Origin: a virus
Lineage: Duplodnaviria > Caudoviricetes
Virus record (IMG/VR): IMGVR_UViG_3300021400_001623
Coordinates: 1 to 64,000 of that record
Direction: 5' to 3' (one strand)
DNA: 64,000 nt
The position numbers and the translations under genes were made by a program. Below are positions 1,141-46,746 of this stretch, in pieces. A model generated the notes under the pieces. It was not told where the DNA came from. It saw only the letters and a list, made by a program, of their open reading frames with translations, and did not search any database. Position 1 is the stretch's first letter. Every line of letters starts with the position of its first letter.

Positions 1141-1267
1141 TCACCTTATAGGACACGAGAAATTGAATTTGTACACCAATAATTGAAATCATCCTGTGAT
1201 TTTTATTGGTGTGATTCAATTTATCCTGTCACCTTATAGGACACGAAAAATTGAATTTGTACACCAA
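1141..1267. repeat. Two 39-bp direct repeats flanking an inverted partial copy
   Basis: TCACCTTATAGGACACGA(G/A)AAATTGAATTTGTACACCAA at 1141-1179 and 1229-1267 (1 mismatch); TTGGTGTGATTCAATTT at 1206-1222 resembles the reverse complement of the repeat 3' half. Confidence 0.9.
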
Positions 1268-1272
1268 AAACG

Positions 1273-1304
1273 AAAAAAAAAAAGACGGTCAATAATGACC
1301 GTCT
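1273..1304 (-). terminator. Intrinsic terminator downstream of 1323..2567
   Basis: Stem AGACGGTCA/TGACCGTCT (1283-1304) followed on the minus strand by an 11-T run. Confidence 0.85.
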
Positions 1305-1322
1305 ATTGATTGATGATATTGG

Positions 1323-2567: not shown

Positions 2568-2640
2568 TGTGATACCTTCCTTTCTGAATCAATGGTTTAA
2601 GTGTATATAATGTAGTGAAAAGTGTTTTTTCACTGTGTCC

Positions 2641-2668
2641 ATTATATCAAATAGGGGAGTATATACAA
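2641..2668 (-). promoter_or_regulatory. Sigma-A-like promoter for the minus-strand genes
   Basis: Minus strand TTGTAT-N16-TATAAT with extended -10 TG (TGATATAAT); tandem CAAGCCTTTT x2 at 2666-2685 overlaps the -35. Confidence 0.55.
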
Positions 2669-3109
2669 GCCTTTTCAAGCCTTTTTTCTGTGTCGGGGAG
2701 TGCCTTTTTTTAATATCCCTATTTTGCAACGGTCTGGCCGTATGATTTCAGTTTGTTCTAATTCAGAAAGTTAAAATTGCCGGGTATTTTTTGATACCAT
2801 GTGCTCCCAGGCAGACAGGAACGTATAATGTCGGTTCCAAAATTTAATACTCCCAAATTTGAGCCTCGAAAACCAGTGTTTCCAATCGATTCGGCGTTTC
2901 GGCCGTCCACGTCGCGATCTATACAGAATGTTGCCTACGCAACGTTTTCTGACAACTTTGGCGCTGATCCGCTTAAAACCTCCGCGCTGTACGCAGATCT
3001 AAAAACCTACATTATATATAGCTCTTATTTTCGCCTTAGATCTTTCCACGAATTTGTACAAAAAAGTTAAAATTCGCCGTTAAAACGTCGCCATTTCGTA
3101 ACCACACCA

Positions 3110-3118
3110 TGTTATAAT
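3110..3118 (+). promoter_or_regulatory. Extended -10 promoter upstream of recombinase
   Basis: TGTTATAAT about 40 nt upstream of ATG 3160; no clear -35. Confidence 0.45.
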
Positions 3119-3159
3119 AGTCGCGTAATCAAAAGTAATTACATTTAAGGGGGTATATT

Positions 3160-3912
3160 ATGTATAGAACTAACCTTGCCGAGCAGCTTCGGCACACTGA
3201 CAACGTGATTCCGTTCACGATTGTAGAGCGCGAAGAGCCAGAGCAGCGCCGCTCCACATCGATTTACAAATCAAACGGCGTCCTGAAGCCCACTGCCGCT
3301 GATCCAATCCGATCCATCGCAGACATTCATGCGATCCAGCAGTACTTTCTAGACCACGACCAGATCCGTAACTACACGCTATTCACTATCGGCATCATGT
3401 TTGGACTGCGTGCAGGAGATCTGCTAGATCTTCGCATCCATCACTTTTTCTTGCCGGATGGCCGCTTCAAGACACATTGCGACTTAATCGAATCCAAAAC
3501 CCGCAAATTCAATAACCCGGCAATTACACCACAGATCCAGCAACTCATAACCAACTATTTAAAGACGCGCACCGACGACTACACGCTTGACAGCCCGCTG
3601 TTCATTTCGCGCAATAAAGATCGTAAAACCGGGCAGCCAAAACCGATCACGATCGCCATGCTCAACACCACACTAAAAAAAGCCGCTGCAGCCTGCAACG
3701 TGCCCGGCCACATTAGCTCCCACTCGCTCCGCAAAACATTTGCCTACCATATGATCAAGTCCAACCCGGACTCTGACAGCGCAAAATTTGCGGTCCAGAC
3801 CATGTTGAACCACGCCGACTTTAAAACCACCCTTTCCTACTGCGGCATTACTCAGGAAGAGGTCGACAGCTTCCGCGTGGGCCTTGGCAGCTATTTCGTG
3901 GAGGCGCGCTAA
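3160..3912 (+). CDS. Small tyrosine recombinase (phage integrase family catalytic domain)
   Basis: Catalytic R-H-R-H-Y motifs: GLRAGDL, SHSLRKTF, MLNH, TLSY. Confidence 0.9.
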   Translation: MYRTNLAEQLRHTDNVIPFTIVEREEPEQRRSTSIYKSNGVLKPTAADPIRSIADIHAIQQYFLDHDQIRNYTLFTIGIMFGLRAGDLLDLRIHHFFLPDGRFKTHCDLIESKTRKFNNPAITPQIQQLITNYLKTRTDDYTLDSPLFISRNKDRKTGQPKPITIAMLNTTLKKAAAACNVPGHISSHSLRKTFAYHMIKSNPDSDSAKFAVQTMLNHADFKTTLSYCGITQEEVDSFRVGLGSYFVEAR

Positions 3913-7348: not shown

Positions 7349-9411
7349 ATAGCTTTAGATAAACAAATTCATATGTACAGTGTTGACACCACCGCCTTTC
7401 TTACGCGCAAGGAATATAAGCTGAATTATAAGAAGCAAGAGCTTGAACGCGAGAAGGAACGTATCGACGAGCTTATTGAGCATCTAAAGATTGAAGTCGG
7501 CGGCATTGTGCACGATCAAGACCTGGCCCATCAGATACGGGAGCATATTGGCTATATGGAACTGTTCTTTTATGAGAATGGTGGATGCTTCACTGTCGGG
7601 CAGATCGACAAGCTGCTTCGGCTTAATGAGCGCTATAATATGCTTTGTCATTATAAGCAGCTCAAGAATGAGAAAATCAAAGATGTAAAAGAACGAATTC
7701 ACGACTTGCTTAACCTCGCTATTGAGAAAAATGAGTGGCGGCAGCATAAGGTGCTTCGCCAGCTCCGGCAGAGTGCACTGGTTGAGAAGAATGTGATCTC
7801 TAATTTTGAGTCAACCTTGACTCGTATTCTTGGCATTGAAACTAATACACTCACCATGGATCTAATCACGGTTGAAGTATTCTATGAGGAGTGTGCGCAG
7901 CAGCTTATCAATGATGGCTTCTTATATAACGGCGAAAAATATGTGTTCTTTGCCGCTTCAGCCGGGCAGATACGCACTAAGCGGACGGTGTTCATTAAAG
8001 AATCCGTACTACGGGAACATGAAGATACGCTGACCTGTGGTCTGTCAATTGACGAGATTAACGCATGCGGCGGCATTAATGTAAATAAATACTTGGCTTA
8101 CTATTCTCTTAGTAGCAGTGCTACTGACTGGTGGGAGGATTTTGACATTGATCGCTGCATAGTGGTACCGGACTTTGCATCTACAGTGCATGGTCTTGTG
8201 GATCACGTTGATGATGTGACGTATACCGTAGAGCGTAAGGCAATGGATATCGAGATTGAGCATACGGATGGTTGTGGGATGATGCTGCCGTCCGTAAGTC
8301 AGCACAACTTTATGATTCGCATGCCGTGGGTTAAAGGGTTGCTTGCAGTGTTTGACTTCCGCCGCTTCATTAATGAGCATGGATGCGAGCCAGTCATTAC
8401 TGATGTTTGGGGTTTGGAACACAATATTATTGATGAAGATATACAGGTAATACTGACCAAGAGTCAAATGAAGATGAGTAAGTATTACCCAAGCTGGCAA
8501 GCCTATAAGGATAATTTTAAGAAGTATCATTGTCAGGCCGGGCGATGCAAAGAGGAAGAAGATTACATACCAGACGCGCAGATCAATTACCAGATGCTTC
8601 AAACCTTAACTGATATCAAGCCGGAGGAACTTGAAAGAATAGCCGGGCCAGCAATTCAGCGCATTGATGATGCAACAAAGAGTATTGCTGGGATGCTTGA
8701 TATCATGCGGGCCACAAAGGATAATCATCATAAGTCGCCGCTTGAAGAAGCACTTTATCTATGTCCTGAGTTGCTTACCGATAATCATTGCAAGGAGACG
8801 ATCACCGAGATCAAGCGCAAAATGGTGAATGAGTATCGTGCGGGCAAATTACCTGTAAACGGTAAATACACATTTGTTGTTCCGGATCTTTACGCCGCTT
8901 GTGAACATTGGTTCTTACATGAAGAACATCCGCGTGGATTATTGGATGACGGTGAGGTATTCTGCGCGCTCTACCCTACTGCTCGTAAACTTGATTGTTT
9001 GCGTGCCCCGCACCTGTATCGGGAGCATGCTGTTAGGCGTAATGTGATTGATAATATGACGGCAGATTGGTTCAGCACCGGGGCATTATATATTAGTTGC
9101 CATGATTTAATCAGTCGTATTGTGCAATGTGATTGGGACGGAGATACGCTTTTAGTAGTAAATGATAAGACTTTGATTAAAGTGGCCGAGCGTAATATGC
9201 AAGGTGTGGTACCGTTATATTATGAGATGAAAAAGGCCGAACCGGATATAATTGATCGCAGCAAGTTCTATGAAGGTATGAAGCTGGCATGGGCTGGTGG
9301 CAAGATTGGAGAGCCAAGTAACAATATAACTAAGATTTGGAACGAGGATGAAATTGGAGAAGACGAAGAGTTGGCGGTTAAGCTTCTATGCATGGAGGTC
9401 AACTTTACGAT
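7349..9411 (+). CDS. yonO: YonO-like single-subunit DNA-dependent RNA polymerase, exon 1
   Basis: ORF track 7373..9430; motifs DGCGM, FMIRMPWVKG, CLRAPHL and catalytic CDWDGD; SPbeta-like position; SD AGGTGGTG points to an in-frame ATA start at 7349. Confidence 0.85.
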
Positions 9412-10480
9412 ACGGAGATCTGTCGCCTAGTACAGCAATGTACTAGTGAAAAGGTGGTGAACCGGTAAATGCCGGGTGTGCAGCATATGCTGTGCTAACA
9501 GGGAAAGCTAAGGCATTTCATATACTTGGAGGTATATGAAGTTTATAAATAAAAAGACATATTGTGATAATTTTGGAATATATCAGATTAAAAATATATC
9601 GAATAATTGCGTTTATGTTGGACAGACAAAAGCTAGTTTTCAAAAACGATTTTGGCAACATAATAATTTATTATCACAAAATAGGCATTTTAATAAACAA
9701 CTACAATATACATGGAATATATATGGGTCAGAATCATTTGTATTTGAAGTATTATATGTATGTAATGACGACGACGATATTGATGCTCTTGAAGAACAAT
9801 ATATACTGGACGCAAGAAATCGTACAACGTGCTTTAATATATTAAATGGCTCGTCTTTTAAGAACTCAAACGTTGGTGAGTTGAACCGCAGACGTTTGCT
9901 TGGTACTCAACTATCTGAGCAAACAAAACAAAAAATGTCTAAATCAAGAACTGGAAAGCGGCAGTATAAAAAACGGGATCGACTAACAGACGAACAAGCT
10001 ATTCATGTTAAACAGCTACTCATCGATGGATATTCATCAAAAGAAATAATGAATTTAACTGGCATAGAATATAAAGTTATAAACAATATTATTTCATGCG
10101 ATGCATATAAAACACTTTATGTAGATGGTTGGGATAAGTATCGTGAGAAGCATGATACTGATGTAAAAAAGAAAAAGGCTATAACACAAAAGTTACACAG
10201 TGATATAGTTGAACTGTTTGTAAAATATCAGATGCCAAAATCTAAAATTGCAGATTATCTATCTGTGTCATGGCATACTGTTGATGATCATTTGAAAAAT
10301 GAAATGCTATGCTAATCCTGTGCTAAGCCTCATATGAGGAAAGTGCAACGACTATCCTAATTTTAGGAGTAGATTAGTGGTGAAAATCCACTTTTCGAAG
10401 TGCCACCCACCCTATTTAATCTAGGGTGATGATATAGTCTAAACCCCTTATAAATATCGGGAAACCGAGGGTATTATTTG
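9412..10480 (+). mobile_element. Group I intron (IA2-like) with homing endonuclease, in RNAP gene
   Basis: P1 exon CGAU/GUCG(9422-9425) with U9411.G9422; P4 ACAGG/CCTGT; P7 GACTA(10350)/TAGTC(10435); P3 GGTGGTG/TGCCACC; P7.1 and P7.2 present; terminal G10480; splicing gives in-frame FTI|DFAKTLYKP. Confidence 0.92.
9536..10315 (+). CDS. Intron-encoded GIY-YIG homing endonuclease
   Basis: GIYQI...VYVGQ motif, KRFWQH, conserved EEQY; NUMOD3-like LSEQTKQKMSKSRTGK; SD GGAGG. Confidence 0.92.
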   Translation: MKFINKKTYCDNFGIYQIKNISNNCVYVGQTKASFQKRFWQHNNLLSQNRHFNKQLQYTWNIYGSESFVFEVLYVCNDDDDIDALEEQYILDARNRTTCFNILNGSSFKNSNVGELNRRRLLGTQLSEQTKQKMSKSRTGKRQYKKRDRLTDEQAIHVKQLLIDGYSSKEIMNLTGIEYKVINNIISCDAYKTLYVDGWDKYREKHDTDVKKKKAITQKLHSDIVELFVKYQMPKSKIADYLSVSWHTVDDHLKNEMLC

Positions 10481-32902: not shown

Positions 32903-35669
32903 ATGCCAGATATTAAAACAAGAGTGTTGGCCGATACTTCACAAGCCGCTAAAACTATAGAAGATTTTTTATCAAAATATAATAATCGTGTTATTAATTT
33001 AAGAGTTAACGCGATTACAAAGGGTTCACTTGCTGGTGTTACAAAAGGTCTGAAACCTATTAAGAAGATGGTGGCTGAGGCTGGTAAATTTAAAGTTCAG
33101 CCAATGATGGATAGTAGATCTGTAAAATCAGTACGAAAAGGGTTAAAAGAACTTCAGGGTGCACAAGTTAGATTATTTAAGGATCGTGAAACGCAGCGTA
33201 AATATCACGAGACTATGGATCGTGCAGCCGCCAAGGATGCTAATAGAATTGCAGATCAGCAAACCAAGCATTATAGAAACAATCTTAAAGAAAGGGTTAA
33301 GGATCATAAACAGGCTGCAGCTCAACAGGCTAAAATAACTGAGGCGTCTGAAAAAAAACAAGCTAAAATATCTGAACAAATTCAAGAGCAATCAGATAAG
33401 AAGAAAAGCAAAAAACGTAAGGCAGCAGCCAAGGCTGAAGCTAAGCAAGCTGAGCCAAAAGCAAAAAGTAAAAATGCCGCAGAACAAAAAAGAAGTTCTG
33501 CCAAACAAGTAAATGAAAAGGCTGCAGCAGCAAGACGCTTAAAGGAAGTTGAATCTGCTTGGGCTGAGCGAAGAAAAATTTTAGAGGCAGAGTATGCCGC
33601 TCGTACAAAAGCTGAAAGTAAAGCGGCTGAACAAAGCATTAAAACAAATCGCAAGAAAAATGAACAAATAGCTCGTGATAATAAAAAGGCGGCTACAGCC
33701 GCAGCTGCTGCTCCACCGGGAGGCGGTGGCCCTTCAGAACCACCTAATAAAACTGTTGCTAAAGCGCGTCAGGAAGTTAATAAAACTCTTAAAGATCTGG
33801 ATAATGAAATAGCTCGATATGACAAAATGCTGGAAGGCCCGCATCGTGATTTTATGAATCCTGATGCGAAACGAGCACTAAAAGAAGAACGTCAAGCGTT
33901 GCGTAATCGTAGGCGCAATGCTAGAAATTTACGCAAGGAACTTCTTGGTAGACCAGATGACACTGTTATTGATAGTAAACTTGCGAGACGGGTTGATCGT
34001 CATACTGGACGTACTAAGACTGGTATTAGTGACGCTAGCACAGTTCGTGCTGAAAACGCTGATTATGTAAAAAGTGCTATTGGCACGCAAAAGGCGCGAG
34101 CTGCTGAAGCAAAAGCAGCACAGAAAGCAGCAGAAGATGCAGCGGCAGCTGAGAGGAAAACCGAACGTAAGGCTTTTGAGGATCGTTTGGCTAGACACGC
34201 TGCTGAAAAAAAAGAACGTGAAAAAGCGATTCAAGAGCGTTCAAAGCAAGCACAGAAAGAAGGTTGGGCTGAATATCATGCTGCTGAGCAGCGCATGAAA
34301 CGTCAGCAGAAACTCACACAAAATGCGGCTGATGAAGAACGTGCTCAACAAAAGCAGCGTAATCGTGATGCGGAAAATATTCGCAAGCAAGCTGAAAAGG
34401 ATGCTCGCTCTATTTATAATCGTGGGAATGAGTTAGATAGACGGACTGGAAAAGGCGGCGAATGGGCTGGGTTATTATCTGATAAAGATATTGCTAAGCA
34501 GAAAAAGCTTGTTTCTGATACCCTTGAATTAGATAAAAAGCTTGCCACTTTAAGAAACGCAACAGCTGGTCGAAATGTTACAGCGGCCGAATATCAAGAA
34601 ATGGAGCGTCTTGGTGCCGCTATTAGTAATAATAATGCTTTGATGAAGCATTATGATAAAACTAATCAAAGTCATATAAAGACTGCTAAGGCCGAGCTTA
34701 AAGTACAAGAACAGAATCAAAAGGCATGGGATAAACAGGCTGAAACATATCGCAAACAGGCTGTGACCAATGCGCGCAATATTCAATCGATGTCGCGCAC
34801 GTTTAGTAATAATACTGGGCGTGGTGGTGCATGGGAGAATATGCTTACGGAGCAGCAAAGACAATCTTGGCAAAAGCAAATGGCTAGTGCGACTCAAGCC
34901 AGACAGGAGCTTGCTCGGTTAAACACACAGACTCAAGGCCGGAATGTTACGCAGTCACAAGCCGATGAATATAAGAAGTGGGCAACACAACTTAATACTG
35001 CAAAAACAAATCTTCAAGGTTTAACTAAAGTATATACCGATCATGTCAAGGCTTTGAACGGCCCGCAAAACGCGGCGATTTTCTACGATAAGTTGGCTGC
35101 TAAGATGTCCGATTATAATGCAAAATTCGGGCATAATTTACAACGCAACCAGCGCTTAATGGATCAATTCAATACCTTGCAGATGCGCGCGAATAATGGC
35201 GACTTCGCAAATATTGGAGAGGCTAATCGTCAATGGGCTACATTCCGTACCGAAGCGCGTAAGGCTGGCGTTGAAATCGATTCTTTTGGTTCTAAACTTC
35301 AAAGGACATTTGGTTCCAGAGTGAGATCCGCTACGGCGGGTATGGGCGTTTATATGATTCAAAGCGCATTGCGCGGAATTGTAGAGAATGCCAAAGAAGT
35401 CGATACGGCGATGACCGAGTTAAAGAAGGTTACTACTGGAACTGATAAGACTTACGAAGATTTCTTAACTAATGCTGGAACGCGCGCACAAACTCTTGGT
35501 GCGACGCTTCAGGAAACGGTAAGTGCAACAGCAGATTTTGGTCGTCTCGGATATAACATTGAGGATGCGACAAAGTTAGCGGATAATGCGCTTATCTATC
35601 AAAATGTCGGTGACGATATTGAAAGCATCGATGAGGCGTCAAAGGCGCTTATTTCAACGATGCAAGGGT
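32903..35669 (+). CDS. Tape measure protein, exon 1
   Basis: ORF track 32903..35716; TP901-like motif VDTAMTELKKVT...ATADFGRLGY; ends MQG-T at intron. Confidence 0.88.
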
Positions 35670-36733
35670 TAATTAAAGCTCTTGTAAAACAGGGTGAATT
35701 GCTGGAACATCCTTAGAGCTCTAATACTACAACGTGGTTGGAAACGACGAGCGTGACAGTGTGAAAAATTAGAGATTGGACAATCAGCAGCCAAGGGCCG
35801 TATAGGTCAAGGTTCAACGACTAAAGCAGATGCTTGTAGGGTGGAAGTCCACTCGAAGTGCCCTGCTCTTTTTATTTTAAAGAGAAGATATAGTCTAATC
35901 TCGCATGAAAATGTGAGCAGTATATATATCATGGGAAGGAGTATATGTGGATAATTATTGTGTTTATATGCATATCTTCCCCAACGGTAAAAAATACATT
36001 GGTATTGCTAAAGAGGATAGATTGTTAAAAAGATGGGGGTCTAATGGTGACGGATATCTCAATAATAGACAATATGCTATTGAAAATGCAATACGTAAGT
36101 ATGGTTGGGAGAATGTGCGTCATGAAATTTTATTATCAGGTCTTTCAAAATCTGAAAGTAAAATAGCTGAAATTCAATTAATTAAAAAATATAACACTTT
36201 TGGTGTTAATGGTTACAACATGACACCTGGTGGTGATGATCGCACGTTTATGTATGGAGCTAATAATCCATCGTCTCGGCCAGTCATATATCAGAATAAA
36301 GAATATGCAACTATGAATGATTTTTGCAAAACATTCAATCTCAAGATGCCTACGGTATCAATGTGGTTAAATGGGAAAGAGCCAATGCCAAAGATATATT
36401 ACGAAAACGGACTACATTTTAAAGGCGAAGGAATGAATCATTTATATGTGCAGAACGGACATCCATCTGGGAAAAATTCACCAACTGCAAAAGCTATATA
36501 TTTTAATGGCGTGAGATATGACACATTAAAAGAATTTTGTAAGCATTATGGTGTTACAAAAGATACAGTACGCGGATGGACTATTGGTAGGACGGCTATG
36601 CCACGTTATTTTTATGATGGTAACTTGCATTATGAGGGTGGCGATCTATCTTTAGCTAAGCGTAGTAAAGTTAAAAATAAATTTGATGATATATATACGA
36701 GGCTGAATTAACGACTCAGCCTGAATATACATG
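35670..36733 (+). mobile_element. Group I intron (IA2-like) 1 of tape measure gene, with homing endonuclease
   Basis: 7-bp P1 CAAGGGU/GCUCUUG(35678-84) with U.G; AATTGCTGGAA(35697), AATCAGCAGC(35782), P7 GACTA(35819)/TAGTC(35891); P7.1 and P7.2; terminal G36733; splice restores QG-F-GIEAE. Confidence 0.93.
35947..36711 (+). CDS. Intron-encoded GIY-YIG homing endonuclease
   Basis: YCVY...KYIGI, AIRKYGWEN, GYNMTPGG; two C-terminal repeated DNA-binding modules (GANNPSSRPV.. / GKNSPTAKAI..). Confidence 0.9.
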   Translation: MDNYCVYMHIFPNGKKYIGIAKEDRLLKRWGSNGDGYLNNRQYAIENAIRKYGWENVRHEILLSGLSKSESKIAEIQLIKKYNTFGVNGYNMTPGGDDRTFMYGANNPSSRPVIYQNKEYATMNDFCKTFNLKMPTVSMWLNGKEPMPKIYYENGLHFKGEGMNHLYVQNGHPSGKNSPTAKAIYFNGVRYDTLKEFCKHYGVTKDTVRGWTIGRTAMPRYFYDGNLHYEGGDLSLAKRSKVKNKFDDIYTRLN

Positions 36734-37195
36734 TTGGTATAGAAGCTGAGAATAGTACTTCTATTGTAGATAAATTTAATGAGGTTGCGAATAACTATGC
36801 TTCCTCAGCCGGAGATATCGGCCAAATCACTCAGCGAAGTGCTGCGGCTATGTCGGCGGCAGGCAACTCCTTAGACCAGACAATAGCTTTGGGAGTTGCT
36901 GCGAACGAAGTTCAGCAGGATGCTGATACAGTGGGTACGGCTTTAAAAACCATGAGCATGCGGCTAAGAGGTTCTAAGACTGACATGGAGTCCATGGGCC
37001 TCGACACGGAGGGTATGGCAACATCCGTATCTAAACTTCGTGATGAAATATTAAATTTATCCGGCGTTGATATAATGCTGGACGAAAATACATTTAAATC
37101 CTCTTACGATATCCTTATGGGTATCGGAGAGGTGTGGGATGGTCTAACAGATATTAATAGAGCGAATATCACCGAATTGTTGTTTGGCAAGAGAC
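36734..37195 (+). CDS. Tape measure protein, exon 2
   Basis: Open frame GIEAENSTSIVDKFNEVANNY...LFGKR; includes ORF-track 36850..37335. Confidence 0.88.
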
Positions 37196-37544
37196 GAACA
37201 ATTGTCTCGATATACGGTGACGTATATTGTAAAACACATCTAATTGCAGGAACCTCCTTTTGGGACAATCTGCAGCGAAGCAAGCTACGGCTTGAACGTT
37301 CAACGACTAGGGAAATGTCATCCCGTACAGCATAAGCTAATGATGCTGGAAATGGTGTGCCCAGCTTAACGCTGGTGAAGAAATAGTCTGATCTGCGGCG
37401 AAAGTCGTAGGAGTTAATGATTTATATATACTGATACAGATTCTTGCGCGCCTCTTAACAATGCGTACCATGTGAGGGTTGCTATAAGATATTTTATTAA
37501 ATCATTGACCGGCGTGGATTTGCGAACCACGTTGAACATAAATG
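37196..37544 (+). ncRNA. Group I intron 2 of tape measure gene (ORF-less, 349 nt)
   Basis: AATTGCAGGAA(37242), AATCTGCAGC(37267), P7 GACTA(37305)/TAGTC(37384), P3 CACATC/GGTGTG; P1 GAGAC/GTCTC; terminal G37544; splice restores GKR-Q-ANIG. Confidence 0.88.
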
Positions 37545-37861
37545 AAGCCAATATCGGTACAGCCATCCTACAAAACTATGAGCGTGCTCAAGAAATTCTT
37601 GAGACCTCGCAAAATTCTGAAGGTAGTGCCCTCCGCGAAAACGAGGTCTATCTGAACTCTATTCAGGGTCACATTGATCAGTTGATCGCTAAGTGGCAGA
37701 CATTCTCTGTTGCCCTTGCCGACTCTTCCGGCTTCAAGGCGATCATTGACGGCATTGGCGGCGTAGCCAATGTTCTTACTGGATTGATCAACGCTTTTGG
37801 CCCTGGGACCATGTTAGCAACGCCGCTTATGGCGATGCTATCCAAAACTTCAAACTCTGGT
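37545..37861 (+). CDS. Tape measure protein, exon 3
   Basis: ANIGTAILQNYERAQEIL...SKTSNSG; part of ORF-track 37472..37915. Confidence 0.85.
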
Positions 37862-38288
37862 AAAGTTTTAAATATGCCCTCTTACGGTGTAAACCGTAGG
37901 ATGTGGGCGGCTTAATATCGGCCGCCTAAGAGAACTCTCAAATTGCTGGAAAAAGCTAAAGCTCGCGAGCCAAAGCGGAGTTGGAAACGACAAACGTAAT
38001 GGCGTGGAAACACGAAAAAATCGCGAGATGGTATATGCTGAGAAAAAAGCGTATTCTATTTCCTCCAATAGTACTTATATTTTGATACTATTGGAGGGAA
38101 TAAAGTATCGTGCTAAGTACCATTCAACAATGCTTAATCAGCAGCCAAGTCCCCTACCCCATCGGGTTCGCGGAAAGGTTCAACGACTGTAAGGGAGTTA
38201 CCAGCTGGTCACTGGTTAATAGACAGTCTGACCTATAGCGAAAGCTATAGAGGGTAGTTAAATGCTACCCCGCCATAATTGAGTATAT

Positions 38289-38329
38289 AAAAAAGGAAGG
38301 CGTTGCACGGGAGGTTCCGATCAACGCCT
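38289..38329 (-). terminator. Terminator for the nested antisense gene
   Basis: Stem AGGCGTTG/CAACGCCT followed on minus strand by TCCTTTTTT. Confidence 0.7.
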
Positions 38330-38395
38330 AATATATTGTTCATGAAAACAATTCATGATGTGGATATTATACAGCATAAAGATTACAAAAGCAAA

Positions 38396-38941
38396 TTACT
38401 TGCCGGGCTCCCATTGGTGACCGCAGTTTTGGCAGACGTTGAGGACTTTATTCGCCCCTACTGCTCCAGCCAAAGCACCTTCGGGACCAGCAGCAATTAC
38501 GCCAGCGACAGCTTTGCCTACACCAAAACCTTGTTTCACTGTGGATATGGATTGAGAGCCACATTTGGGGCAAGAGACTATACCTTGTTGCTTATTCATA
38601 TATGATTGAACTGCAGTTGAACCAGGGTTTGGTTCCATGCCGCATGCGCGACGAGCAATGCGTTTTTCATCTTCATATTTCGCAGGAATAAGCTTGGTAT
38701 TGTTTGGATTTTCGACATATTGTTCCCAAACAGCTTTATACATGTCATAAGTTAGAGCTCTAATGGTATCTGGTCGTCTTCCATGAATTTTATATGAATC
38801 TAATTCTTCATATGTGATTGTTGTTGGCAATAATTTAGGCCCTATAATTGGTGTACTTTTACAAATACAATGTTTTTGTTGCATGTAGTCACTGCGATCT
38901 ACAACGCGCCCACAGTATGGGCAATAATACAAATATCCCAT
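38396..38941 (-). CDS. Double Zn-ribbon protein with glycine-zipper segment (intron-nested accessory gene)
   Basis: ORF track 38396..38956; GGAGG (38950-54) favours ATG 38941; CPYCG..CIC, CPKCG..CQNCG, GFGVGKAVAGVIAAGPEGALAGAVG. Confidence 0.85.
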   Translation of the reverse strand: MGYLYYCPYCGRVVDRSDYMQQKHCICKSTPIIGPKLLPTTITYEELDSYKIHGRRPDTIRALTYDMYKAVWEQYVENPNNTKLIPAKYEDEKRIARRACGMEPNPGSTAVQSYMNKQQGIVSCPKCGSQSISTVKQGFGVGKAVAGVIAAGPEGALAGAVGANKVLNVCQNCGHQWEPGK

Positions 38942-38962
38942 TTTATATACCTCCATATATAT

Positions 38963-38971
38963 ATTATATCA
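38963..38971 (-). promoter_or_regulatory. Extended -10 sigma-A promoter for nested gene
   Basis: Minus strand TGATATAAT just upstream of the GGAGG SD. Confidence 0.6.
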
Positions 38972-39009
38972 TATGGTATTTGAGTTATGGTTATTAAAGT
39001 AACAGTGTG

Positions 39010-42000
39010 TTATTTCAAACTGTAGAACAGATTAATGCAAAAACCGGAGATTCAAGGCAAGTATCTCAAAACTTTATTTCTGCTAGAAAAACAAAGGCAG
39101 CAACAAATGCATATTATTCAGACAAGAATAATCAATATGCTTTGCAAGATATGTCTCGTGCTAGACGAGATATGGAGCATGCGGAACGTCTAAGGGCTAG
39201 AGGTAATGCGGCTGGTGCAGCTGAAATTGAAGCTAAAGCCATTAAGGATTTAGATACTGCTTATCAAAAATTAGATGATACTGGTAAAAAATATGGTAAT
39301 CAGATAAAGGATCGTAATACAGATTTATCAAAGCATCAAAAAATTATAGCAGACTGCAGTGAAGCAACTGATAGAATGGCGCAATCTCAGGGCAAATTAA
39401 GGAGTGGATTTGCAGCATCTACTATCTCAATGGCTAAAAATATTGGCGCAACAATGGCTATTGGGACTGCTATTGACCTAACTATGAAGGGTTTTGATAC
39501 GCTTGATAAACATTTCCTTCTTACTGCCAATGCACAGAAAACTGCAATGAAAGATGTTGTAAGTGAGTATAAGGCCAGTACTGATACTTACACAGAAAAT
39601 ATAAACACAATTAATTCATTATCTGATGAATTTACAACTCTTTCTAAAGGCGTTGATGCGCATGGTAAAAATATTAGCCTTACAGCCGAACAATATGCTC
39701 GGTACAATGAGATTGTCAGCCAACTCGTTGCTACTTCGCCACAATTAGTTAAGGAGTATACTGCGGAGGGCAATGCTGTCGTAGATCGCAACAAGGCTAT
39801 TCAAGAGGCTATTGATCTGCAAGAGTCTTATCGTCGCAGCGCTGTTGCAAAATATACTTCTGATGATAGCATGCGAGCAATTCGTCTTGGATCTGCTGCA
39901 GAACGTCGTGAGATTCAGGCTGACATGCAATCCGCGGCAACTGAGCTCGATAAGCTTATGGGCGAAGGGACTGGTCAACGACGCACCACTTCTGCTTTTG
40001 GCTTAACTAAAGCTGGCGCTTCTACAGAAATTAAAGCAGTTAAGGAAATTAACGATGTTTTAGGTGAAAATGTTGATTTAGAAAATGCTTCTGCGGCTAC
40101 GTTATTGCGTATCGCTGAGCGTCGCGATGAGATAATCGGGAAAGTGGAAAAATCAACACAATATACCGATAAAGAAAAGCAATCTATTAAAGATTCCTTG
40201 TCGACCATTTCAACTTTAGCTCCGGATTTAGAGGCAACATATCAAAGCACTATAGACGCATTACAGACATATGTGTCTAGTGCAGATGAAACAGGCGTTT
40301 CTATCGCATCCTCTTTGCCAGAAAGTATGCAGGAAAGTTATGCTGCTGGTTTAAAGAAAATAGCGATGTCTGGTCTTGGAGATGCAGAAATGAAAACTGC
40401 TGCCAAGGATTTGGTGACGGATTTACAAAAAATCTATTCATCAAATGAAGGCGGCTTTAGAGATGCTGAACAAAACGTTGAGAATGCAAAAGAAAAATTC
40501 CTTGGTAGCGCAAGAGATAAAAATGCGGTTAAGGAATATAATGATAGTATTAAAGAATCTATAGGTACAATTGATCAGTTAGCGGAAAGCTATCGAGCTG
40601 CTGGCAATGATTTTCTTGCTGATGCATTAGATGCGCGTTCATTAGAACTTGCTGATTTTGGGCAAGAAAACATCCTCACCCTTGCAGACGCCTTCAACCC
40701 CCTCATCGACAAAATAACAGAAGCGCGTACCGTCAAAGAAAAATTTGACGCAGCGATGGCTGGCGGTGACTATGATACCACCGTTAATAGCTATAAAGAA
40801 ATGTACGACTCCATGATGGATGGTTACAACAATGCTGGTAACGGTACACAAGGTTTCTGGAATTTTGCTGAGCTGACTCTTGGACAAACAGCGCTTAAAG
40901 ATTTTGGCTATGACATAGATGCTGTTAATGCGCGACTCAAAGAGCTTGCTCCTGTCATGGAGAAAACTGAATCTGGAACAAATGCCTTCTTCGATCTTCT
41001 TGCGGCTAATCGCGATAAACTTAATGAGATCGAAGGCGTAACGATTGCGGAAGATGGATCGTGGGATATTCCAGCTGAAAAGTATGGTGAAGTTGCACGA
41101 CAGCTTGGTATTGCCGAAGACCTTTTAGTTGGTTGTGTTGATAACGCTCGCCACTGGGCGGACGTTAAGCTTTGGGATAGTCCTCAGAAAGCTGTTAAAG
41201 CCATCAAAGATATGGATACCACCTTCGAAAGTGCCGAAGGCAAAGCTTATGCATTTTACGATACCGTGGCGCAGCAGGCGCAACAAGCTGGTTTAAGTGG
41301 ACAAGAGTTTACCGAATATATGGACGAAATCGGTAAAAAGGTTGAACTTATTGATCTTAGCGCTCTTGATTTTGATCCAAATACCACAGAGGGCACTAAA
41401 AAGATCAACGCATTAGCTAATCAACTCACAAATATGAGTGATTTGGTCGGCACCAATGGCAAGCTCGATTTAACAGGCACCATAGCTATGTTTAAGCAGA
41501 TGGGTGCAACTGCCGATCAAACAACGCACGCCCTTGAAAAATTCCGTGAGAACGGTAATTTAGATATTGGCGAAGGTGTTGATATCGGTGATACGGTTAC
41601 CCAGGCATATGGAGAGTTAGAGGCTAACGATCCATTCGCTAAAATGACAAGTTCAGTTGATGGCTTACATAATGCTATTAACCAGTTGATTTCGGCCATG
41701 GGGATGGTGCCTGAAGACTGGATGAATTTAGATGGTATTAACCAGCAAATTAAAGGTCTAGAAGCTGCTGGCGACAAAATCAAACAATCAGATATTGATG
41801 CTGCCCAAGCAGAAATTGATGAGAAAAGAGCTAACTTGGAAGCTGCAAGGTCATCAACGACAGACACTGATGAACTTACTAAGATTAATAATACAATTGC
41901 AGCCCTAAATCAACAGCAAATTGCTTTAGATCAATTACGTGCACCATTAGAAGGATACACGAATTTACTGCAACATGCTGCGGAGACCGGAGATCAAATA

Positions 42001-45000
42001 GGTTCTGACGGTCAGTTAGATCAAACACTTCGAGATATTGGTGAAGCAGCACAAAAGAGCGGCCAAGATGTTGATCAATATATTGGTTCGATTGCGAAAA
42101 ATCGGCAAGAAGCTGACAAACTTCGTCAGGCATATCATCAACTTGAATCTCAAACAGCTGTAACTGATGCCACTTCTTCTGTTGCTAATGGAGCCAAACA
42201 AGCAGTTGATTCTGCGAAAACTGCTGTACAAGGTTTAATGTCTGGCTTTGGACGTACTGAAGCCGACGTAGATGTCAATGTTGATGACTCTGAAGTTGAT
42301 GACGCCGAGGAAAAAGTTGATGATCTTGATGGCAAAGATGTCGATGTTAATGTTGAGGCTAGTGCAAGAGGACTTGATAGCACCTTGAAGCAGATTGATG
42401 GGCTTAGTGATGAAGATCGTAAGACTGTTGTGGATGCTTATGTTAAGGTACATCAAGAAGGTGAAGACCCTCAAGTTTTACAAGATGCTATTAATGCGTT
42501 GCCGGACAATAAACAGACTATTGTCGGTGTTACGGTTAATGATGCTTCCGCTAGTTTAGAGGCAGTGCAAAGTGGATTGGATAATGTTGAAGCAACTACT
42601 CCGTCTCCGACAATTGCTGCAACAGATAATGCGACAAGCGTTATTAATAGCGTACTAGGTGCTTTGGCTGCTGCTAACGGACGAACAGCAACTACCACAA
42701 TTACTACTCGTCATGTCACTAGTTATGAAACTACAGGGACTCCTCCTAGTAAATACGCTGGAACTCCGAATCGTCGCGTCCCCTCTTTATACTCTGGTTC
42801 TGATAATCGTCGCCGTGCTGGTTCAGCAGCTAAGGGCGGTAAACTTGGCCCTCACGGTAAAGGTGGCCTTACCCTCACTGGAGAACTCGGCCCAGAATTA
42901 GTCTGGCTGCCGGATGAAGATACTTCATTCCTTACTGGTGTTCGTGGACCAGAAATGCGGGTACTTCCTGGCAATGCGGTTGTCTGGCCTTATGAAGAGA
43001 CCAAACGCATCTTTGGCGGAACGGTATCTGCCGGGTATTTAAATACGCGGAATGCTTGGTCTAAGAAGCAGCTTAATAATTATTTAGGCGGTTCTTCTGC
43101 TCGTGGCGCAAATTATCAATTTGGATCGGCTAAAAAGGGCAGCAAGAAGAAAAAATCTTGGAGCGACTATTCGGATAGAATAGATTTTAACTATGATATC
43201 GAGAAAATTAGCGAAGAAACGTATTATAAGCAGTTAGTTAAAAAATATAAAAAAGTAAAAAAGAAATTAACTGGATCAGAGAGACGTAACGCCAGAAAAG
43301 CTATTCACGATGCTTATGCTCAGATGCTTGATGCAAAAGTTGAGAATTTGGACTTTGCACAAGATATGGATAACATCGATGCCGCACAATATTATACAAA
43401 ATTGGCGGCATTAGCTTCTAAATATAAAAGAAAAAGTAAAAGAGACGGTAAATATACCAAAGAATATCGTGATTATCAGCTTAAACTTAAAGAAGCTGCC
43501 GATGCAATCTATGAGCGTGAAAAGTCTCAAATTGACTTTATGCTCAATCTCGGGGTTAATAAATCTGGTACGAAAACCTATAACGCCGTCGATGCATATA
43601 AAGATCTGCAAAATTATTTAAGAAAAGCAATTTCCGGTAAAGTAACTTCCAATACAAGTACAAAAACTTTAACTAGCGCAAGCTATGCAAAGAAATTCTT
43701 ATATACCGGGACATCTAACCGTCGTCAGCCAATTCGCTCGATGGCACGCGGTAGTGGTAGAATTGGTCCTGCTGGTCGTGGCGGATTAACATTAACTGGT
43801 GAATTAGGTCCTGAATTAGTATGGCTTCCGGATGATAATTTGTCGTTCGTAGTTGGGCTTTATGGGCCAGAAATGGTGGATTTACCAAGTAATGCAGTTG
43901 TGTGGCCTAACGATGAAACACAAGCTATTTTTGGTGACACTGTTAATTCTAGTTATCTTGAGCCAACAGATGCACTTACTTATGAAGAGTTGGAATACTT
44001 AGAATCATTATTATCTGGATCAGTTGCCAATGGCGCTAATCTTTTTGGTTCTTTGTCTACTGGTAAACGTAAAAAGACAACAACTAAAACAACTAAAACA
44101 ACTAAACGACCAGCGAAGTCAACTAAAAAGCCAAAGAAAAAGAAGAAGAAAACTAAGAAGAAAAAAACTAAGAAGAAAAATAAAGCTAAAACTGGAATCA
44201 TTAGCTCGATTAAAACATCGTCAAAACTTATATCTGGTGTTAATAAGGGAAAATCATCTAGTTCAAAGAGTAATACAGACAATACTTGGAATGCTATGTC
44301 CGAGGAAGAGCGTCAGCAATTACTCGAAGATCTTAAAGAGGCGCGACAAGACGCATATGATTATCAAAATGATACTTTTGAGCGTATTCTTAACAATTCA
44401 TTCTCAGATGATTGGAACGCATTGAATAAATATTTAGTCGATGCACAGAAGAATTTAAAGACACTAAACGAGCTACAGGATTCAGATAAAATCATTGAAG
44501 CACGTCAACAAATTGTTGATACTTTCTTTGATAATTTAAATGAAAAGTTTGATGATGTTAAAGAAAAGATTTCTGACAATGATCTGTTTAATTCTTGGGG
44601 CGATGGCGAATCTGCGCTTACTTTATTAATGCAATATAAGGCGCAATTAGAAACTATTTACGCCGCAAATAAAGATGCACTAGGAAAAGATACTGATGCA
44701 GCAAAACAATATTTGAAACTCATCAAGGAAGTGAATCGTGAATTAGTTAACGCTAAAGCGGAGGCTAAAGATAAGTACGATGATATTTTCCAATTAGTTG
44801 AACAGTTAGTTCGTCAGGAAAAGAAAGATCTTATTGATGCCTTAGAAAAGCAGAAGGATAAGTATGATGACATCATTGCTAAGAAAAAAGAGAGTTTACA
44901 GTTAACTGAAAATGAGCTTGATTATCAAGATCAGTTATCTGATTATGCAAAGCAAGAGGCTAAACTTCGTACGCAAATAGCATCTCTTTCGCGCGATACG

Positions 45001-46746
45001 AGCCGCGAGGCCAAGGCGAAGCGCGCCGAGCTTCAAGAACAGCTTGATCAGTTATTGGTCGAGAAGAACCGTACTGTGCGGCAGGAAACTATCTCTCGTA
45101 CGAATGATGCGCTTGACAAACAGCAAGAATCTTATGGTGATTTTATTGATAAATTAACGGAATCAATAAATGCTGTTTTAGATAATCAGGAAGCTGTAAA
45201 TGCACTTGTATATGATGCATTGGATAATCGCGATACGAATAATTTATTACAAAGATTATATGATTATAACGCTGAATATGGTGACGGTTTAATCCAAACG
45301 GTTGAAGAGTGGCAGATGGATCTGAATGATATCGTTGAGAACGAAATTTATAAGGAACTGAAATATCAAACAGAAGCATTGCGTGCAAGCCTAATTAATG
45401 AAGTTGGCTATGGCGATGATGAACACAAGGGCAAGTTTACCGACGACGTTACTTCCTGGAATAATGAGACTATTAGTAGGTTCTTATATTCGTTCGATCA
45501 GCTGTCTGATAAGTATTTCGATGAAGCGAAGTTGTTAGACACTATTATTGAGAAGTACGAAGAATTAATTAAAAAGTTTGACGCGCTATGGTTTGGTGAT
45601 TCTTCTGGCCAAGTTGATGCGACATCTAAGATTCGTATGGCAAATGCTTATAAAGCTCAGGTTGAAAGTGCTGAAGCAACTGTGCAAACTGCAGCTGGAC
45701 AGGCTGATGATGCATTAATTGCTGCTAATACTGCTAAAGCGCAGGCTGAGGCAGCAAAGTCGGAAGCCGACGCAAAGAAGGCGGAGGCAGATGTCGCAAA
45801 TGCAAATTTAGATGCAGCAAAACAAAAAGTAGCAAATGCACAAAAACAACTTCAAAGCGATAAAGCGGCATATAGTAATGCGGAAAAGAACGTTGTTAAT
45901 GCTAATAAAGCTTTAGATAGTGCACTTAATGCAAGGGATAAGGCCGCAAGTAAAGTGGCAAAGATGCAGAACGCTTTGGAGACGGCTAAGGCAAAAAGTT
46001 ATAAGAGTAAAGAAGCGCGAAGTAAAGCTATTGCTAAGGCAAAAGACAATCTTGCCGCTGCAAAATCAGCTTATACAACAGCTAATAAAAATGTAACAAC
46101 TGCAAATGATAATGTAAAAAAGCAGCATCAAAATCTCGTAGAAATTGATAAGAAAATCGGTAACGACATTAAATCAATTGAAAGTGCACAGGCTGCAGCC
46201 GCAATTGCTGAAAAAGAAGCTGCAGCTGCTACGCAAGTATGGGAATCTTTCTTAGCGGCGCAACGTGAGGCCGAAGTGAACGCAAAGTTAGCCATGTACC
46301 AATATGATGCTATGGCTCAAAATCTTGCTAATGCGACACAGGAGCTTGAGATAGCTAGGGAGCGCTTTGAATCAGCTAATACTGCGTTATTGAACGCAAT
46401 GGATAATGACGTTATTGTTCCATCATACAATATTTTAAGTGATGCGGCGCAATCACTTGATGGTGTATTATCGACTTTTGCAAATACTAATCTAGTTTCT
46501 GATGAAATTATGGCTGGGATTGCATCGTTGGGTGCAAGTGTAAATACTACGAATCAAGCTAATAATTCACCACAAACTTATTCGTTTAATATGCCATTCA
46601 CAGTTACTGTAAATGGTAATATGTCTCAAGCAGATCAGGCTAAATTACAGTCTGACTTATCCAATGCCGTTTATAATGGTTTGTATAATGCATTACAGAT
46701 GAATGGATTAGCAACTTCTACATCTGCGAATGCCTTAAAGAATTAA
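39010..46746 (+). CDS. Tape measure protein, exon 4
   Basis: ORF track 39007..46746 lacks an SD and is open only from 38998; four exons total 11283 nt = 3760 aa, in frame. Confidence 0.85.
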   Translation, partial: LFQTVEQINAKTGDSRQVSQNFISARKTKAATNAYYSDKNNQYALQDMSRARRDMEHAERLRARGNAAGAAEIEAKAIKDLDTAYQKLDDTGKKYGNQIKDRNTDLSKHQKIIADCSEATDRMAQSQGKLRSGFAASTISMAKNIGATMAIGTAIDLTMKGFDTLDKHFLLTANAQKTAMKDVVSEYKASTDTYTENINTINSLSDEFTTLSKGVDAHGKNISLTAEQYARYNEIVSQLVATSPQLVKEYTAEGNAVVDRNKAIQEAIDLQESYRRSAVAKYTSDDSMRAIRLGSAAERREIQADMQSAATELDKLMGEGTGQRRTTSAFGLTKAGASTEIKAVKEINDVLGENVDLENASAATLLRIAERRDEIIGKVEKSTQYTDKEKQSIKDSLSTISTLAPDLEATYQSTIDALQTYVSSADETGVSIASSLPESMQESYAAGLKKIAMSGLGDAEMKTAAKDLVTDLQKIYSSNEGGFRDAEQNVENAKEKFLGSARDKNAVKEYNDSIKESIGTIDQLAESYRAAGNDFLADALDARSLELADFGQENILTLADAFNPLIDKITEARTVKEKFDAAMAGGDYDTTVNSYKEMYDSMMDGYNNAGNGTQGFWNFAELTLGQTALKDFGYDIDAVNARLKELAPVMEKTESGTNAFFDLLAANRDKLNEIEGVTIAEDGSWDIPAEKYGEVARQLGIAEDLLVGCVDNARHWADVKLWDSPQKAVKAIKDMDTTFESAEGKAYAFYDTVAQQAQQAGLSGQEFTEYMDEIGKKVELIDLSALDFDPNTTEGTKKINALANQLTNMSDLVGTNGKLDLTGTIAMFKQMGATADQTTHALEKFRENGNLDIGEGVDIGDTVTQAYGELEANDPFAKMTSSVDGLHNAINQLISAMGMVPEDWMNLDGINQQIKGLEAAGDKIKQSDIDAAQAEIDEKRANLEAARSSTTDTDELTKINNTIAALNQQQIALDQLRAPLEGYTNLLQHAAETGDQIGSDGQLDQTLRDIGEAAQKSGQDVDQYIGSIAKNRQEADKLRQAYHQLESQTAVTDATSSVANGAKQAVDSAKTAVQGLMSGFGRTEADVDVNVDDSEVDDAEEKVDDLDGKDVDVNVEASARGLDSTLKQIDGLSDEDRKTVVDAYVKVHQEGEDPQVLQDAINALPDNKQTIVGVTVNDASASLEAVQSGLDNVEATTPSPTIAATDNATSVINSVLGALAAANGRTATTTITTRHVTSYETTGTPPSKYAGTPNRRVPSLYSGSDNRRRAGSAAKGGKLGPHGKGGLTLTGELGPELVWLPDEDTSFLTGVRGPEMRVLPGNAVVWPYEETKRIFGGTVSAGYLNTRNAWSKKQLNNYLGGSSARGANYQFGSAKKGSKKKKSWSDYSDRIDFNYDIEKISEETYYKQLVKKYKKVKKKLTGSERRNARKAIHDAYAQMLDAKVENLDFAQDMDNIDAAQYYTKLAALASKYKRKSKRDGKYTKEYRDYQLKLKEAADAIYEREKSQIDFMLNLGVNKSGTKTYNAVDAYKDLQNYLRKAISGKVTSNTSTKTLTSASYAKKFLYTGTSNRRQPIRSMARGSGRIGPAGRGGLTLTGELGPELVWLPDDNLSFVVGLYGPEMVDLPSNAVVWPNDETQAIFGDTVNSSYLEPTDALTYEELEYLESLLSGSVANGANLFGSLSTGKRKKTTTKTTKTTKRPAKSTKKPKKKKKKTKKKKTKKKNKAKTGIISSIKTSSKLISGVNKGKSSSSKSNTDNTWNAMSEEERQQLLEDLKEARQDAYDYQNDTFERILNNSFSDDWNALNKYLVDAQKNLKTLNELQDSDKIIEARQQIVDTFFDNLNEKFDDVKEKISDNDLFNSWGDGESALTLLMQYKAQLETIYAANKDALGKDTDAAKQYLKLIKEVNRELVNAKAEAKDKYDDIFQLVEQLVRQEKKDLIDALEKQKDKYDDIIAKKKESLQLTENELDYQDQLSDYAKQEAKLRTQIASLSRDTSREAKAKRAELQEQLDQLLVEKNRTVRQETISRTNDALDKQQESYGDFIDKLTESINAVLDNQEAVNALVYDALDNRDTNNLLQRLYDYNAEYGDGLIQTVEEWQMDLNDIVENEIYKELKYQTEALRASLINEVGYGDDEHKGKFTDDVTSWNNETISRFLYSFDQLSDKYFDEAKLLDTIIEKYEELIKKFDALWFGDSSGQVDATSKIRMANAYKAQVESAEATVQTAAGQADDALIAANTAKAQAEAAKSEADAKKAEADVANANLDAAKQKVANAQKQLQSDKAAYSNAEKNVVNANKALDSALNARDKAASKVAKMQNALETAKAKSYKSKEARSKAIAKAKDNLAAAKSAYTTANKNVTTANDNVKKQHQNLVEIDKKIGNDIKSIESAQAAAAIAEKEAAAATQVWESFLAAQREAEVNAKLAMYQYDAMAQNLANATQELEIARERFESANTALLNAMDNDVIVPSYNILSDAAQSLDGVLSTFANTNLVSDEIMAGIASLGASVNTTNQANNSPQTYSFNMPFTVTVNGNMSQADQAKLQSDLSNAVYNGLYNALQMNGLATSTSANALKN

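Follow-up and report, generated by a model that had tools for sequence, protein, structure and literature searches.

Positions 37862-39009 of the phage DNA examined here very probably constitute a single group I intron in a tape-measure protein (TMP) gene, with a loop that holds a complete accessory gene in the antisense orientation. The window, by which we mean the whole 64,000-nt stretch that was analyzed, corresponds to positions 1-64,000 of the 80.4-kb IMG/VR record IMGVR_UViG_3300021400_001623, from an uncultured Caudoviricetes phage. The complete intron is 1148 nt long on the plus strand and combines a ribozyme core (P1-P9.1; 37862-38270, +), which takes up its first ~410 nt, with a 3' cargo loop. 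It is preceded by TMP exon 3 (37545-37861, +), which ends ...SKTSNSG with U37861 as the 5' splice-site U, and followed by TMP exon 4 (39010-46746, +), which starts LFQTVEQ in frame with exon 3. Rfam matches place three group I introns in this TMP gene (35583-35917, 37176-37410, and 37858-38250), and the antisense-bearing intron is the third. Between ~3.2 kb and 64 kb, every large open reading frame (ORF) free of overlap with a longer one is on the plus strand except 38396-38956 (-); the antisense gene is the only sizeable minus-strand ORF without a longer plus-strand overlap in a ~55-kb plus-strand block. For comparison, every locus encoding a full-length homolog of the antisense protein was fetched, and L078 was added from an IMG/VR survey with an exon 3 profile. 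The intron layout recurs in eight independent related loci (L008, L010, L012, L013, L014, L026, L028, and L079), at the same TMP codon.

The first-pass annotation of this DNA had proposed a full group I core at 37862-38270, and the Rfam family RF00028 indeed matches 37858-38250 with 71.1 bits (E 4.7e-16, model positions 1-253), the gathering score being 50. Core identity between loci is 92-98% and that of their exons 38-73%; among the window, L010, L013, and L014, the cores are 92-94% identical, exon 3 is 66-73% identical, and exon 4 is 38-64% identical. Eight base pairs show compensatory changes on both sides among these four core sequences. The L028 core, only ~70% identical, has P2, P2.1, P8, P9, and P9.1 all rebuilt via paired substitutions. 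These comparisons indicate that the ribozyme is under selection.

The exon 3 frame closes on a complete GGT codon, and the exon end CTGGT|AAAG is kept in L010, L013, and L014. The internal guide sequence (37865-37878, +) comprises GUUUUAAAUAU (37865-75), which pairs with the 3' exon (P10), and GCC (37876-78), which pairs with the exon GGU (P1). P1 sets U37861 opposite G37876 as a U.G wobble, already noticed in the first-pass annotation, followed by two G-C pairs, and is invariant in the window, L010, L013, and L014. GUUUUAAAUAU, also invariant, lies directly 5' of G37876 and is the exact 11-base reverse complement of AUAUUUAAAAC, which opens the 3' exon in L008, L010, L012, L013, and L026 and gives a P10 of 11/11 pairs there. 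The first 11 nt of window exon 4, UUAUUUCAAAC, form a P10 of 9/11 pairs in the textbook position; the 5-bp pairing AAAUA/UAUUU that had been suggested is real and continues past one mismatch to this length. The guide of L079, AUUUAAAUAU, and its exon, AUAUUUAAAU, form 10 bp, with P10 position 10 changed from A-U to U-A on both sides.

At the far end, the terminal G of the intron (omega-G, 39009, +), which had been expected ahead of the resumed frame, is present there, and the context G|(A/U)UAUUU is kept in 9/9 intron-bearing loci. Read in TMP orientation, six of the loci (L008, L010, L012, L013, L014, and L026) have G|AUAUUUAA(A/G)AC where the downstream TMP frame resumes. A conserved motif, AAAGUAACAG (38996-39005, +), stands upstream of omega-G, and its consensus RGYAACA occurs 6-13 nt before the 3' splice site in all intron-bearing loci. 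Taken together, the comparisons support a 3' splice site at 39009/39010, ~740 nt beyond the core.

The reading frame on either side of this site behaves as one gene. Excision of 37862-39009 ligates exons 3 and 4 in frame, with a predicted spliced junction of ...AMLSKTSNSG|LFQTVEQINAKTG..., and the earlier proposal that the frame resumes at 39010 as SNSG|LFQTV without a Shine-Dalgarno sequence (SD) of its own is upheld, no SD being found upstream of 39010. The possibility that exon 4 is translated from its own start found no conserved start position: the first in-frame start codon (ATG, GTG, or TTG) lies 45-60 codons past the junction across loci (codon 45 in the window), and L013 has no in-frame start codon in the 80 codons read after the junction. 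The window's GTG at 39007, one codon ahead of the junction, is not a conserved feature; in L010 and L012 the junction is directly preceded by TAG. The first ~25 codons after it are conserved as protein (IFKTY..L...KTG.TEQRVG). Intron-less homologs, which might have shown a TMP naturally split at this point, are continuous. L078, whose exon 3 is 76% identical, has an open frame of at least 2529 codons that reads through the empty site, with the sequence ...SKTSNSGLFKTY... encoding SKTSNSGLF (longer context ...AAMSKTSNSGLFKTYNKLVNAETG...). Ten more distant long TMPs, found by an exhaustive HMMER search with exon 3, align gap-free over the junction to the spliced window sequence (...LS.KN.G[FIL]F[KS]...). 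Given the shared junction motif, P10, the lack of a start codon, the distant homologs, and the empty site, a naturally split TMP is very unlikely.

The ~700 nt between core and 3' splice site appear to be closed off by a long-range helix. A 9-bp pairing of GCCAUAAUU (38272-80) with AGUUAUGGU (38983-91), proposed at the outset, is present and extends to 11/13 pairs over 38272-84/38979-91. Its 5' strand, GCCAUAAUUGAGU (38272-38284, +), is nearly invariant across loci, and its 3' strand, UUUGAGUUAUGGU (38979-38991, +), ends 18 nt before omega-G. GCCAUAAUU(U/G)AGU is near-invariant after P9.1 in the window, L010, L012, L013, L014, L026, L028, and L079, and only base 38281 differs in the 5' strand (G in the window, U elsewhere). 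The helix has 11/13 pairs in the window, 12/13 in L010 and L013, and 13/13 in L028 and L079, in which the perfect helix closes loops of 3.2 kb and 2.4 kb, respectively. When the 5' strand was scanned against downstream sequence, its best partner lay 15-20 nt before omega-G in 6/8 loci scanned, with 11-13/13 pairs, and the 13/13 partner in L028 lay 45 nt before omega-G; the partner was the unique best among 700-3300 registers in 5/8 scanned loci, and also in L079. The predicted helix is thus well supported by position and conservation.

Inside the loop and on the opposite strand lies a complete expression unit, and the extended -10, GGAGG SD, 181-aa gene, and intrinsic terminator listed in the first-pass annotation were all found where it had placed them. 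The extended -10 element TGATATAAT (38963-38971, -), read from the sequence, is identical in the window, L010, L026, and L028, and TATAAT-like hexamers occupy the same place in L008, L012, L013, and L014. The GGAGG SD (38950-38954, -) stands 8 nt before the ATG at 38941, and a GGAG-type SD is found at the matching position in all loci. The ORF listing extends the gene to an ATG at 38956 inside the SD; since all homologs start MGY or MK, the start was set at 38941, giving a 181-aa gene at 38396-38941 (-). The intrinsic terminator (38288-38329, -) consists of a hairpin at 38298-38329 and a U-run at 38288-38297, with a folding energy of -19.1 kcal/mol (z -5.1; no shuffle was equally stable) and 88-98% conservation across loci; the loop-size rule of a simple terminator scan excluded it. 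The terminator is kept in the loci that share the window-type core, and the -10 and SD positions are kept in all loci. With a predicted promoter and terminator of its own, both conserved between loci, the antisense unit has the signals that characterize a phage moron.

The encoded protein has an N-terminal zinc ribbon, a helical middle, and a C-terminal zinc ribbon split by a Gly/Ala-rich stretch. It matches phrog_2546, a family of unknown function, over its full length (E 2.1e-21; residues 6-178 on profile positions 16-179 of 180), and full-length homologs are 40-59% identical to it. Among ten homologs, Cys7, 10, and 27 of the N-terminal ribbon and Cys124, 127, 170, and 173 of the C-terminal ribbon are invariant, Cys25 is present in 90%, the Gly/Ala-rich stretch between the C-terminal knuckles is almost invariant, the middle is variable, and no His, Asp, or Glu of the N domain is invariant. 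The ratio of nonsynonymous to synonymous substitution (dN/dS) between L010 and L026 is 0.095 in the N domain and 0.046 in the C domain, and the C domains of the window and L008 differ by no amino acid (proportions of differing nonsynonymous sites, pN, 0 and of synonymous sites, pS, 0.73). These values indicate that the antisense gene is under strong purifying selection as a conserved accessory gene. We also considered, and rejected, the idea that the core and the C domain form one recently transferred block: C-domain synonymous sites are strongly diverged (pS 0.47-0.73), so that conservation acts at the protein level.

The earlier view of the cargo as a non-nuclease gene held up. The intron 3 ORF matches none of the LAGLIDADG, GIY-YIG, HNH, His-Cys box, PD-(D/E)xK, or EDxHD families, and no nuclease, transposase, or defence family was found for it in Pfam, PHROGs, NCBIfam, or PADLOC, the only matches in Pfam, PHROGs, and NCBIfam being to zinc ribbons and below threshold. 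The results support a cargo that is not a known nuclease, "non-nuclease" here resting on the absence of motifs. The family PF10601, of LITAF-like zinc ribbons that dip into the membrane and have two CxxC knuckles separated by a hydrophobic stretch, matches weakly with E 0.017 and 15.7 bits, below the cut-off of 23.8, with an Atlas feature score of 0.86; the hydrophobic stretch between the knuckles has a predicted local distance difference test score (pLDDT) below 50 and a hydropathy of ~1.4 by hand calculation, below the typical transmembrane value. The AlphaFold2 model of the 181-aa protein has a mean pLDDT of 64.5. A Foldseek search of this model against the PDB returned nothing at E<=0.001, the top Z among 48,161 chains compared by VIA-align was 2.9, no PDB sequence reached an E below 0.2 in a profile search, PADLOC had no match for the window protein, and Atlas offered only unnamed or zinc-ribbon clusters. 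The best BFVD match (E 2e-5, template modelling score 0.33) is to a siphovirus protein of 180 aa annotated "RNA polymerase I-like", probably a member of the cargo protein family.

Relatives of the protein also occur outside introns. L027 is a free-standing full-length homolog, and a tblastn search of phages with the 181-aa protein gave two matches only, both to the C domain. A 335-aa hypothetical protein of Clostridium phage Maintenon (L017:3209-4216) ends in the same Gly/Ala-rich zinc-ribbon domain, and its gene is directly upstream of the TMP gene on the same strand, a position that hints at a link between this domain and the tail or TMP. The C domain is found, too, in chromosomal genes of Clostridia, where the neighbourhoods of the bacterial relatives gave no functional lead, and in a gene of Solobacterium phage SMO_1P between a helix-turn-helix gene and an integrase. 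We take the latter position to be the one in which superinfection-exclusion genes of lactic-acid-bacteria phages sit, which we treat as a lead and not as evidence. Our best guess is that the 181-aa product is a small, possibly membrane-associated zinc-ribbon protein acting in superinfection exclusion or host modulation.

The content of the loop differs between relatives, as a search of homologous TMP loci for varied cargo had been expected to reveal. The intron of the window and of L008, L010, L012, L013, L014, and L026 holds the antisense zinc-ribbon gene only, and L078 has neither intron nor cargo. The 3716-nt intron of L028, from a Clostridia metagenome-assembled genome, holds a sense 32-aa transmembrane peptide, two further sense ORFs (241 and 240 aa, apparently membrane-spanning, with SDs, family unknown), and the antisense zinc-ribbon gene, here with an added SHOCT domain. 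The 2837-nt intron of L079 contains a sense SPP1-type holin (PF04688, 4e-14) and a CHAP/PG_binding_1 endolysin, an antisense 88-aa ORF, and a 165-aa relative of the zinc-ribbon gene, 28% identical to it, that is without the C-terminal knuckles, yet the intron looks intact. The holin and endolysin (L079:7681-9054; IMGVR_UViG_3300031555_005503) are located between closing-helix strands at 7691-7703 and 10100-10112; it is unusual for a virion-gene intron to harbour a lysis cassette. No transposase or recombinase was found in the cargo of the window, L028, or L079. We infer that the loop after P9 would serve in this phage clade as a tolerated storage site for accessory genes, with one to four genes or no intron at all.

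If the region is a single intron with an antisense passenger, the late transcript would run through all of it and ribosomes would stop at a TAA 54 nt into the intron. The 13-position helix (38272-84/38979-91) would then loop out ~700 nt and return the last 18 nt and G39009 to the core, and the guide would pair first with the end of exon 3 (P1) and afterwards with the first 11 nt of exon 4 (P10), aligning the exons. Because the guide pairs with both exons in turn, splicing would join ...SKTSNSG to LFQTVEQ... and yield one TMP of ~3760 aa. The antisense unit would be read by the host RNA polymerase from its host-type extended -10, independently of the late operon, and with the terminator just outside the closing helix, the antisense RNA would never cover the core. 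A YonO-like polymerase and a tyrosine recombinase encoded in the record would fit a temporal separation of host- and phage-polymerase transcription. A wider proposal, which we consider rather improbable, is that the loop acts throughout one clade of Bacillota phages from gut and rumen as a general "safe harbour", in which accessory genes, from those for zinc-ribbon and membrane proteins up to a complete lysis cassette, are exchanged harmlessly inside an essential gene thanks to splicing; the zinc-ribbon protein would be made by the host polymerase while the late operon is silent and act at the membrane against the DNA injection of competitors, with its N domain diverging along with the surrounding TMP region.

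Several observations weigh against this account of a spliced intron with a neutral passenger. P1 is short, with three exon pairs including the U.G, and Rfam's own alignment of P1 is poor. The closing helix lacks true covariation, since one strand hardly varies, and several loci have an internal mismatch; its strands are at the same time 13-bp inverted repeats in the DNA and may be what an inserted element left behind. On the sense strand, too, the terminator hairpin is stable (-17.7 kcal/mol), with a U-rich tract after it, and it could hamper read-through to exon 4. The promoter scan found 13 sites against 8.6 +/- 3.2 in shuffled sequence, which is no excess, and convergent transcription might interfere with TMP expression, so that the cargo may not be neutral. 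For the 181-aa protein, finally, the searches yielded no fold or family that points to a function.

The double nature of the helix bears on an alternative that we hold to be unlikely, namely that a small DNA element with 13-bp terminal inverted repeats inserted after P9.1 and makes up the cargo block or gave rise to it, the helix being a by-product. The repeats GCCATAATT(T/G)AGT and ACT(A)AATTATGGY flank the whole cargo in every locus, making an inserted-element origin possible, and they are perfect in L028 and L079 around 2.4-3.3 kb of cargo; from locus to locus the content differs and the ends are fixed; IStrons, moreover, show DNA elements settling at the 3' end of group I ribozymes (PMC4227781). 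This is countered by the lack of a transposase or recombinase in any cargo, by changes in the 3' strand that for the most part preserve base pairs (G.U to A-U, U to C opposite G), and by the free-standing L027, which is without such repeats, and such an origin would in any case be compatible with a present folding role of the helix. It is quite unlikely, in our judgment, that the zinc-ribbon protein instead serves the intron as a new homing endonuclease, DNA-targeting factor, or maturase. Its gene does travel with the intron in eight loci, the high identity of the core (92-98%, against 38-73% for the exons) fits past intron mobility, the close relative L078 has an empty site, nucleic-acid binding is common among zinc ribbons, and nuclear ribosomal DNA (rDNA) introns include antisense homing genes of the His-Cys-box type (PMC9548176). 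The protein has no match to a nuclease family, though, nor an invariant His, Asp, or Glu in its N domain; its most conserved part is the Gly/Ala-rich stretch shared with chromosomal proteins and non-intron phage genes; a full-length homolog stands free in L027; the L079 copy lost its C-terminal knuckles while the intron looks intact; and mobility could be provided in trans by the GIY-YIG gene located 2 kb upstream in intron 1.

We regard as decidedly unlikely a mainly regulatory antisense unit, with an RNA that gates TMP splicing or message stability, for example off outside late infection, and a protein of secondary importance. The predicted transcript (~38956 to ~38290) lies wholly in the loop and spares the core and both helix strands, and the promoter and terminator positions are conserved, all of which would suit a regulator; most of the cargo in L028 and L079, however, is on the sense strand, and the strong purifying selection on the amino-acid sequence implies that the protein matters, which argues against a purely regulatory RNA. 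Scarcely credible is the last alternative, in which the intron either stops shortly past P9.1 (near 38270-38285) or is never spliced, and the TMP is made as two proteins, with the antisense gene lying between their genes. Gene callers do annotate separate ORFs here, and the window offers a GTG at 39007, a single codon ahead of the junction. That GTG is replaced by TAG in L010 and L012, the codons up to the next start, 45-60 further on, are conserved, a 9-11-bp P10 sits exactly at 39010 with no SD, and the TMPs of L078 and ten other phages are continuous across the site.

Other features of the intron lineage were recorded alongside these results. The Rfam search (cmscan) gave no group I match for the cores at L013:3239-3613 and L028:4711-5118, although the former shares 93% identity with the 71-bit core of the window and the latter has clear compensatory structure, so that intron counts based on Rfam only undercount the lineage. 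In the window and L014, though not in L010 or L013, a peripheral loop of the core contains a perfect hairpin insertion of ~50 nt (window 38056-38106, +); near the same position, the insertion in L015 is far larger. L015 and L016 belong to more diverged TMP genes (exon 3 60% and 48% identical) and have homologous introns at the same N-x-G| codon, with the contigs stopping before the cargo; their guide sequences, AGACUACAAUAUGCC and AAAGAAUAUGCC, differ, which implies co-adapted 3' exons. The RGYAACA motif is doubled in L028 and L079, and a pairing partner and a promoter role were sought for the conserved GUAACA motif near the intron 3' end, with neither found. Exact-pattern scans of viral, genome, and metagenome contigs with two invariant intron strings gave no matches, a third string was absent from 400 Clostridia genomes scanned apart from L028's own copy, and megablast of window positions 35400-39400 against GenBank phages found no match.

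The TMP gene itself is variable around these introns. Homology of exon 3 to other TMPs begins, by HMMER, at about residue 41 of the 37421-37861 translation, and the first 400 aa of exon 4 have no relatives in IMG/VR. Between L013 and L014, exon 3 is 97% identical, the core 92%, the antisense ORF 51-77%, and exon 4 only 50%; near-identity on one side and divergence on the other point to the intron as a boundary of recombination, where unlike N- and C-terminal TMP modules have been joined. Intron 1 (window 35583-36800) has the same layout of a core and then an ORF after P9, but here the ORF encodes a sense-strand GIY-YIG homing endonuclease (35947-36711), matching GIY-YIG and homing-endonuclease PHROGs, unlike the intron 3 ORF; L010 has a NUMOD3-type ORF at the corresponding place. 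Intron 2 is missing from L079 and L010, so the intron content of the TMP gene varies from site to site. Elsewhere in the window, 3160-3912 encodes a 250-aa tyrosine recombinase (Phage_integrase, 1e-17) and 7373-9430 a YonO-like single-subunit RNA polymerase (RdRP family, 1e-10), a pair consistent with a phage that is temperate or plasmid-like and encodes a late polymerase of its own.

Phage group I introns are usually treated as selfish, with a homing endonuclease as the only passenger, while here the passenger appears to be an ordinary gene that has its own expression signals and runs on the opposite strand; relatives vary at this intron site, from empty to occupied by a holin-endolysin pair. 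If the region splices as predicted, self-splicing introns would act as insertion-tolerant storage sites in essential genes and would offer a new route for accessory genes, gene callers would systematically split such TMP genes and mislabel the pieces, and the arrangement would provide a naturally occurring blueprint for placing one gene, with regulation of its own, within another. The locus also provides a testable handle on phrog_2546, a widespread phage family. The open-access literature yielded no description of an antisense, independently signalled non-nuclease gene, or of a swappable multi-gene cargo, in a phage group I intron.

Comparable elements are known from phages, bacteria, and eukaryotes. 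Tourasse and Kolsto (2008, PMC2504315) describe TMP genes of Bacillus cereus-group prophages with up to three group I introns (TMP-IVS1, IVS2, and IVS3; IA1/IA2) in one gene. As in intron 3, P1 and P10 set their splice sites, related phages have the site either filled or vacant, and the cores are more conserved than the host gene; unlike intron 3, they carry a homing endonuclease gene, a remnant, or nothing, and neither an antisense, independently promoted non-nuclease gene nor a multi-gene cargo is described in the section covered (PMC2504315). Nuclear rDNA group I introns at position L2066 resemble intron 3 in having a protein gene opposite to the ribozyme strand, and they are eukaryotic and nucleolar, with a His-Cys-box homing endonuclease as cargo (PMC9548176). 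Intron 3, by contrast, resides in a phage gene, its promoter, SD, and terminator signals are of the bacterial kind, and it shows no nuclease motif.

IStrons have a group I ribozyme at their 5' end and kilobase-sized foreign DNA near their 3' end. As in CdISt1 of Clostridioides difficile and BcISt1 (PMC4227781), splicing would make the insertion harmless to the host gene. The IStron cargo, however, is an IS200/IS605-type transposon with transposase genes that spreads to many sites, whereas the intron 3 lineage has no transposase and one conserved site; its cargo consists of accessory or lysis genes, and the position of the cargo alone is alike. Among organellar introns, rps3 is housed in the group I intron of the fungal mitochondrial large-subunit gene. 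The hexacoral ND5-717 group I intron houses ordinary genes (PMC6545197). These cases share with intron 3 the presence of non-nuclease genes useful to the host genome inside a group I intron loop, but they are sense-strand, vertically fixed housekeeping genes, unlike the cargo of intron 3. Phage morons, defined for lambdoid phages, are promoter-gene-terminator units between phage genes. The antisense unit would resemble them as an autonomous unit with its own promoter and terminator, set against the late operon and holding a gene not needed for virion assembly; classical morons, however, sit between genes, whereas this one would lie inside an essential coding sequence and be harmless only through RNA splicing.

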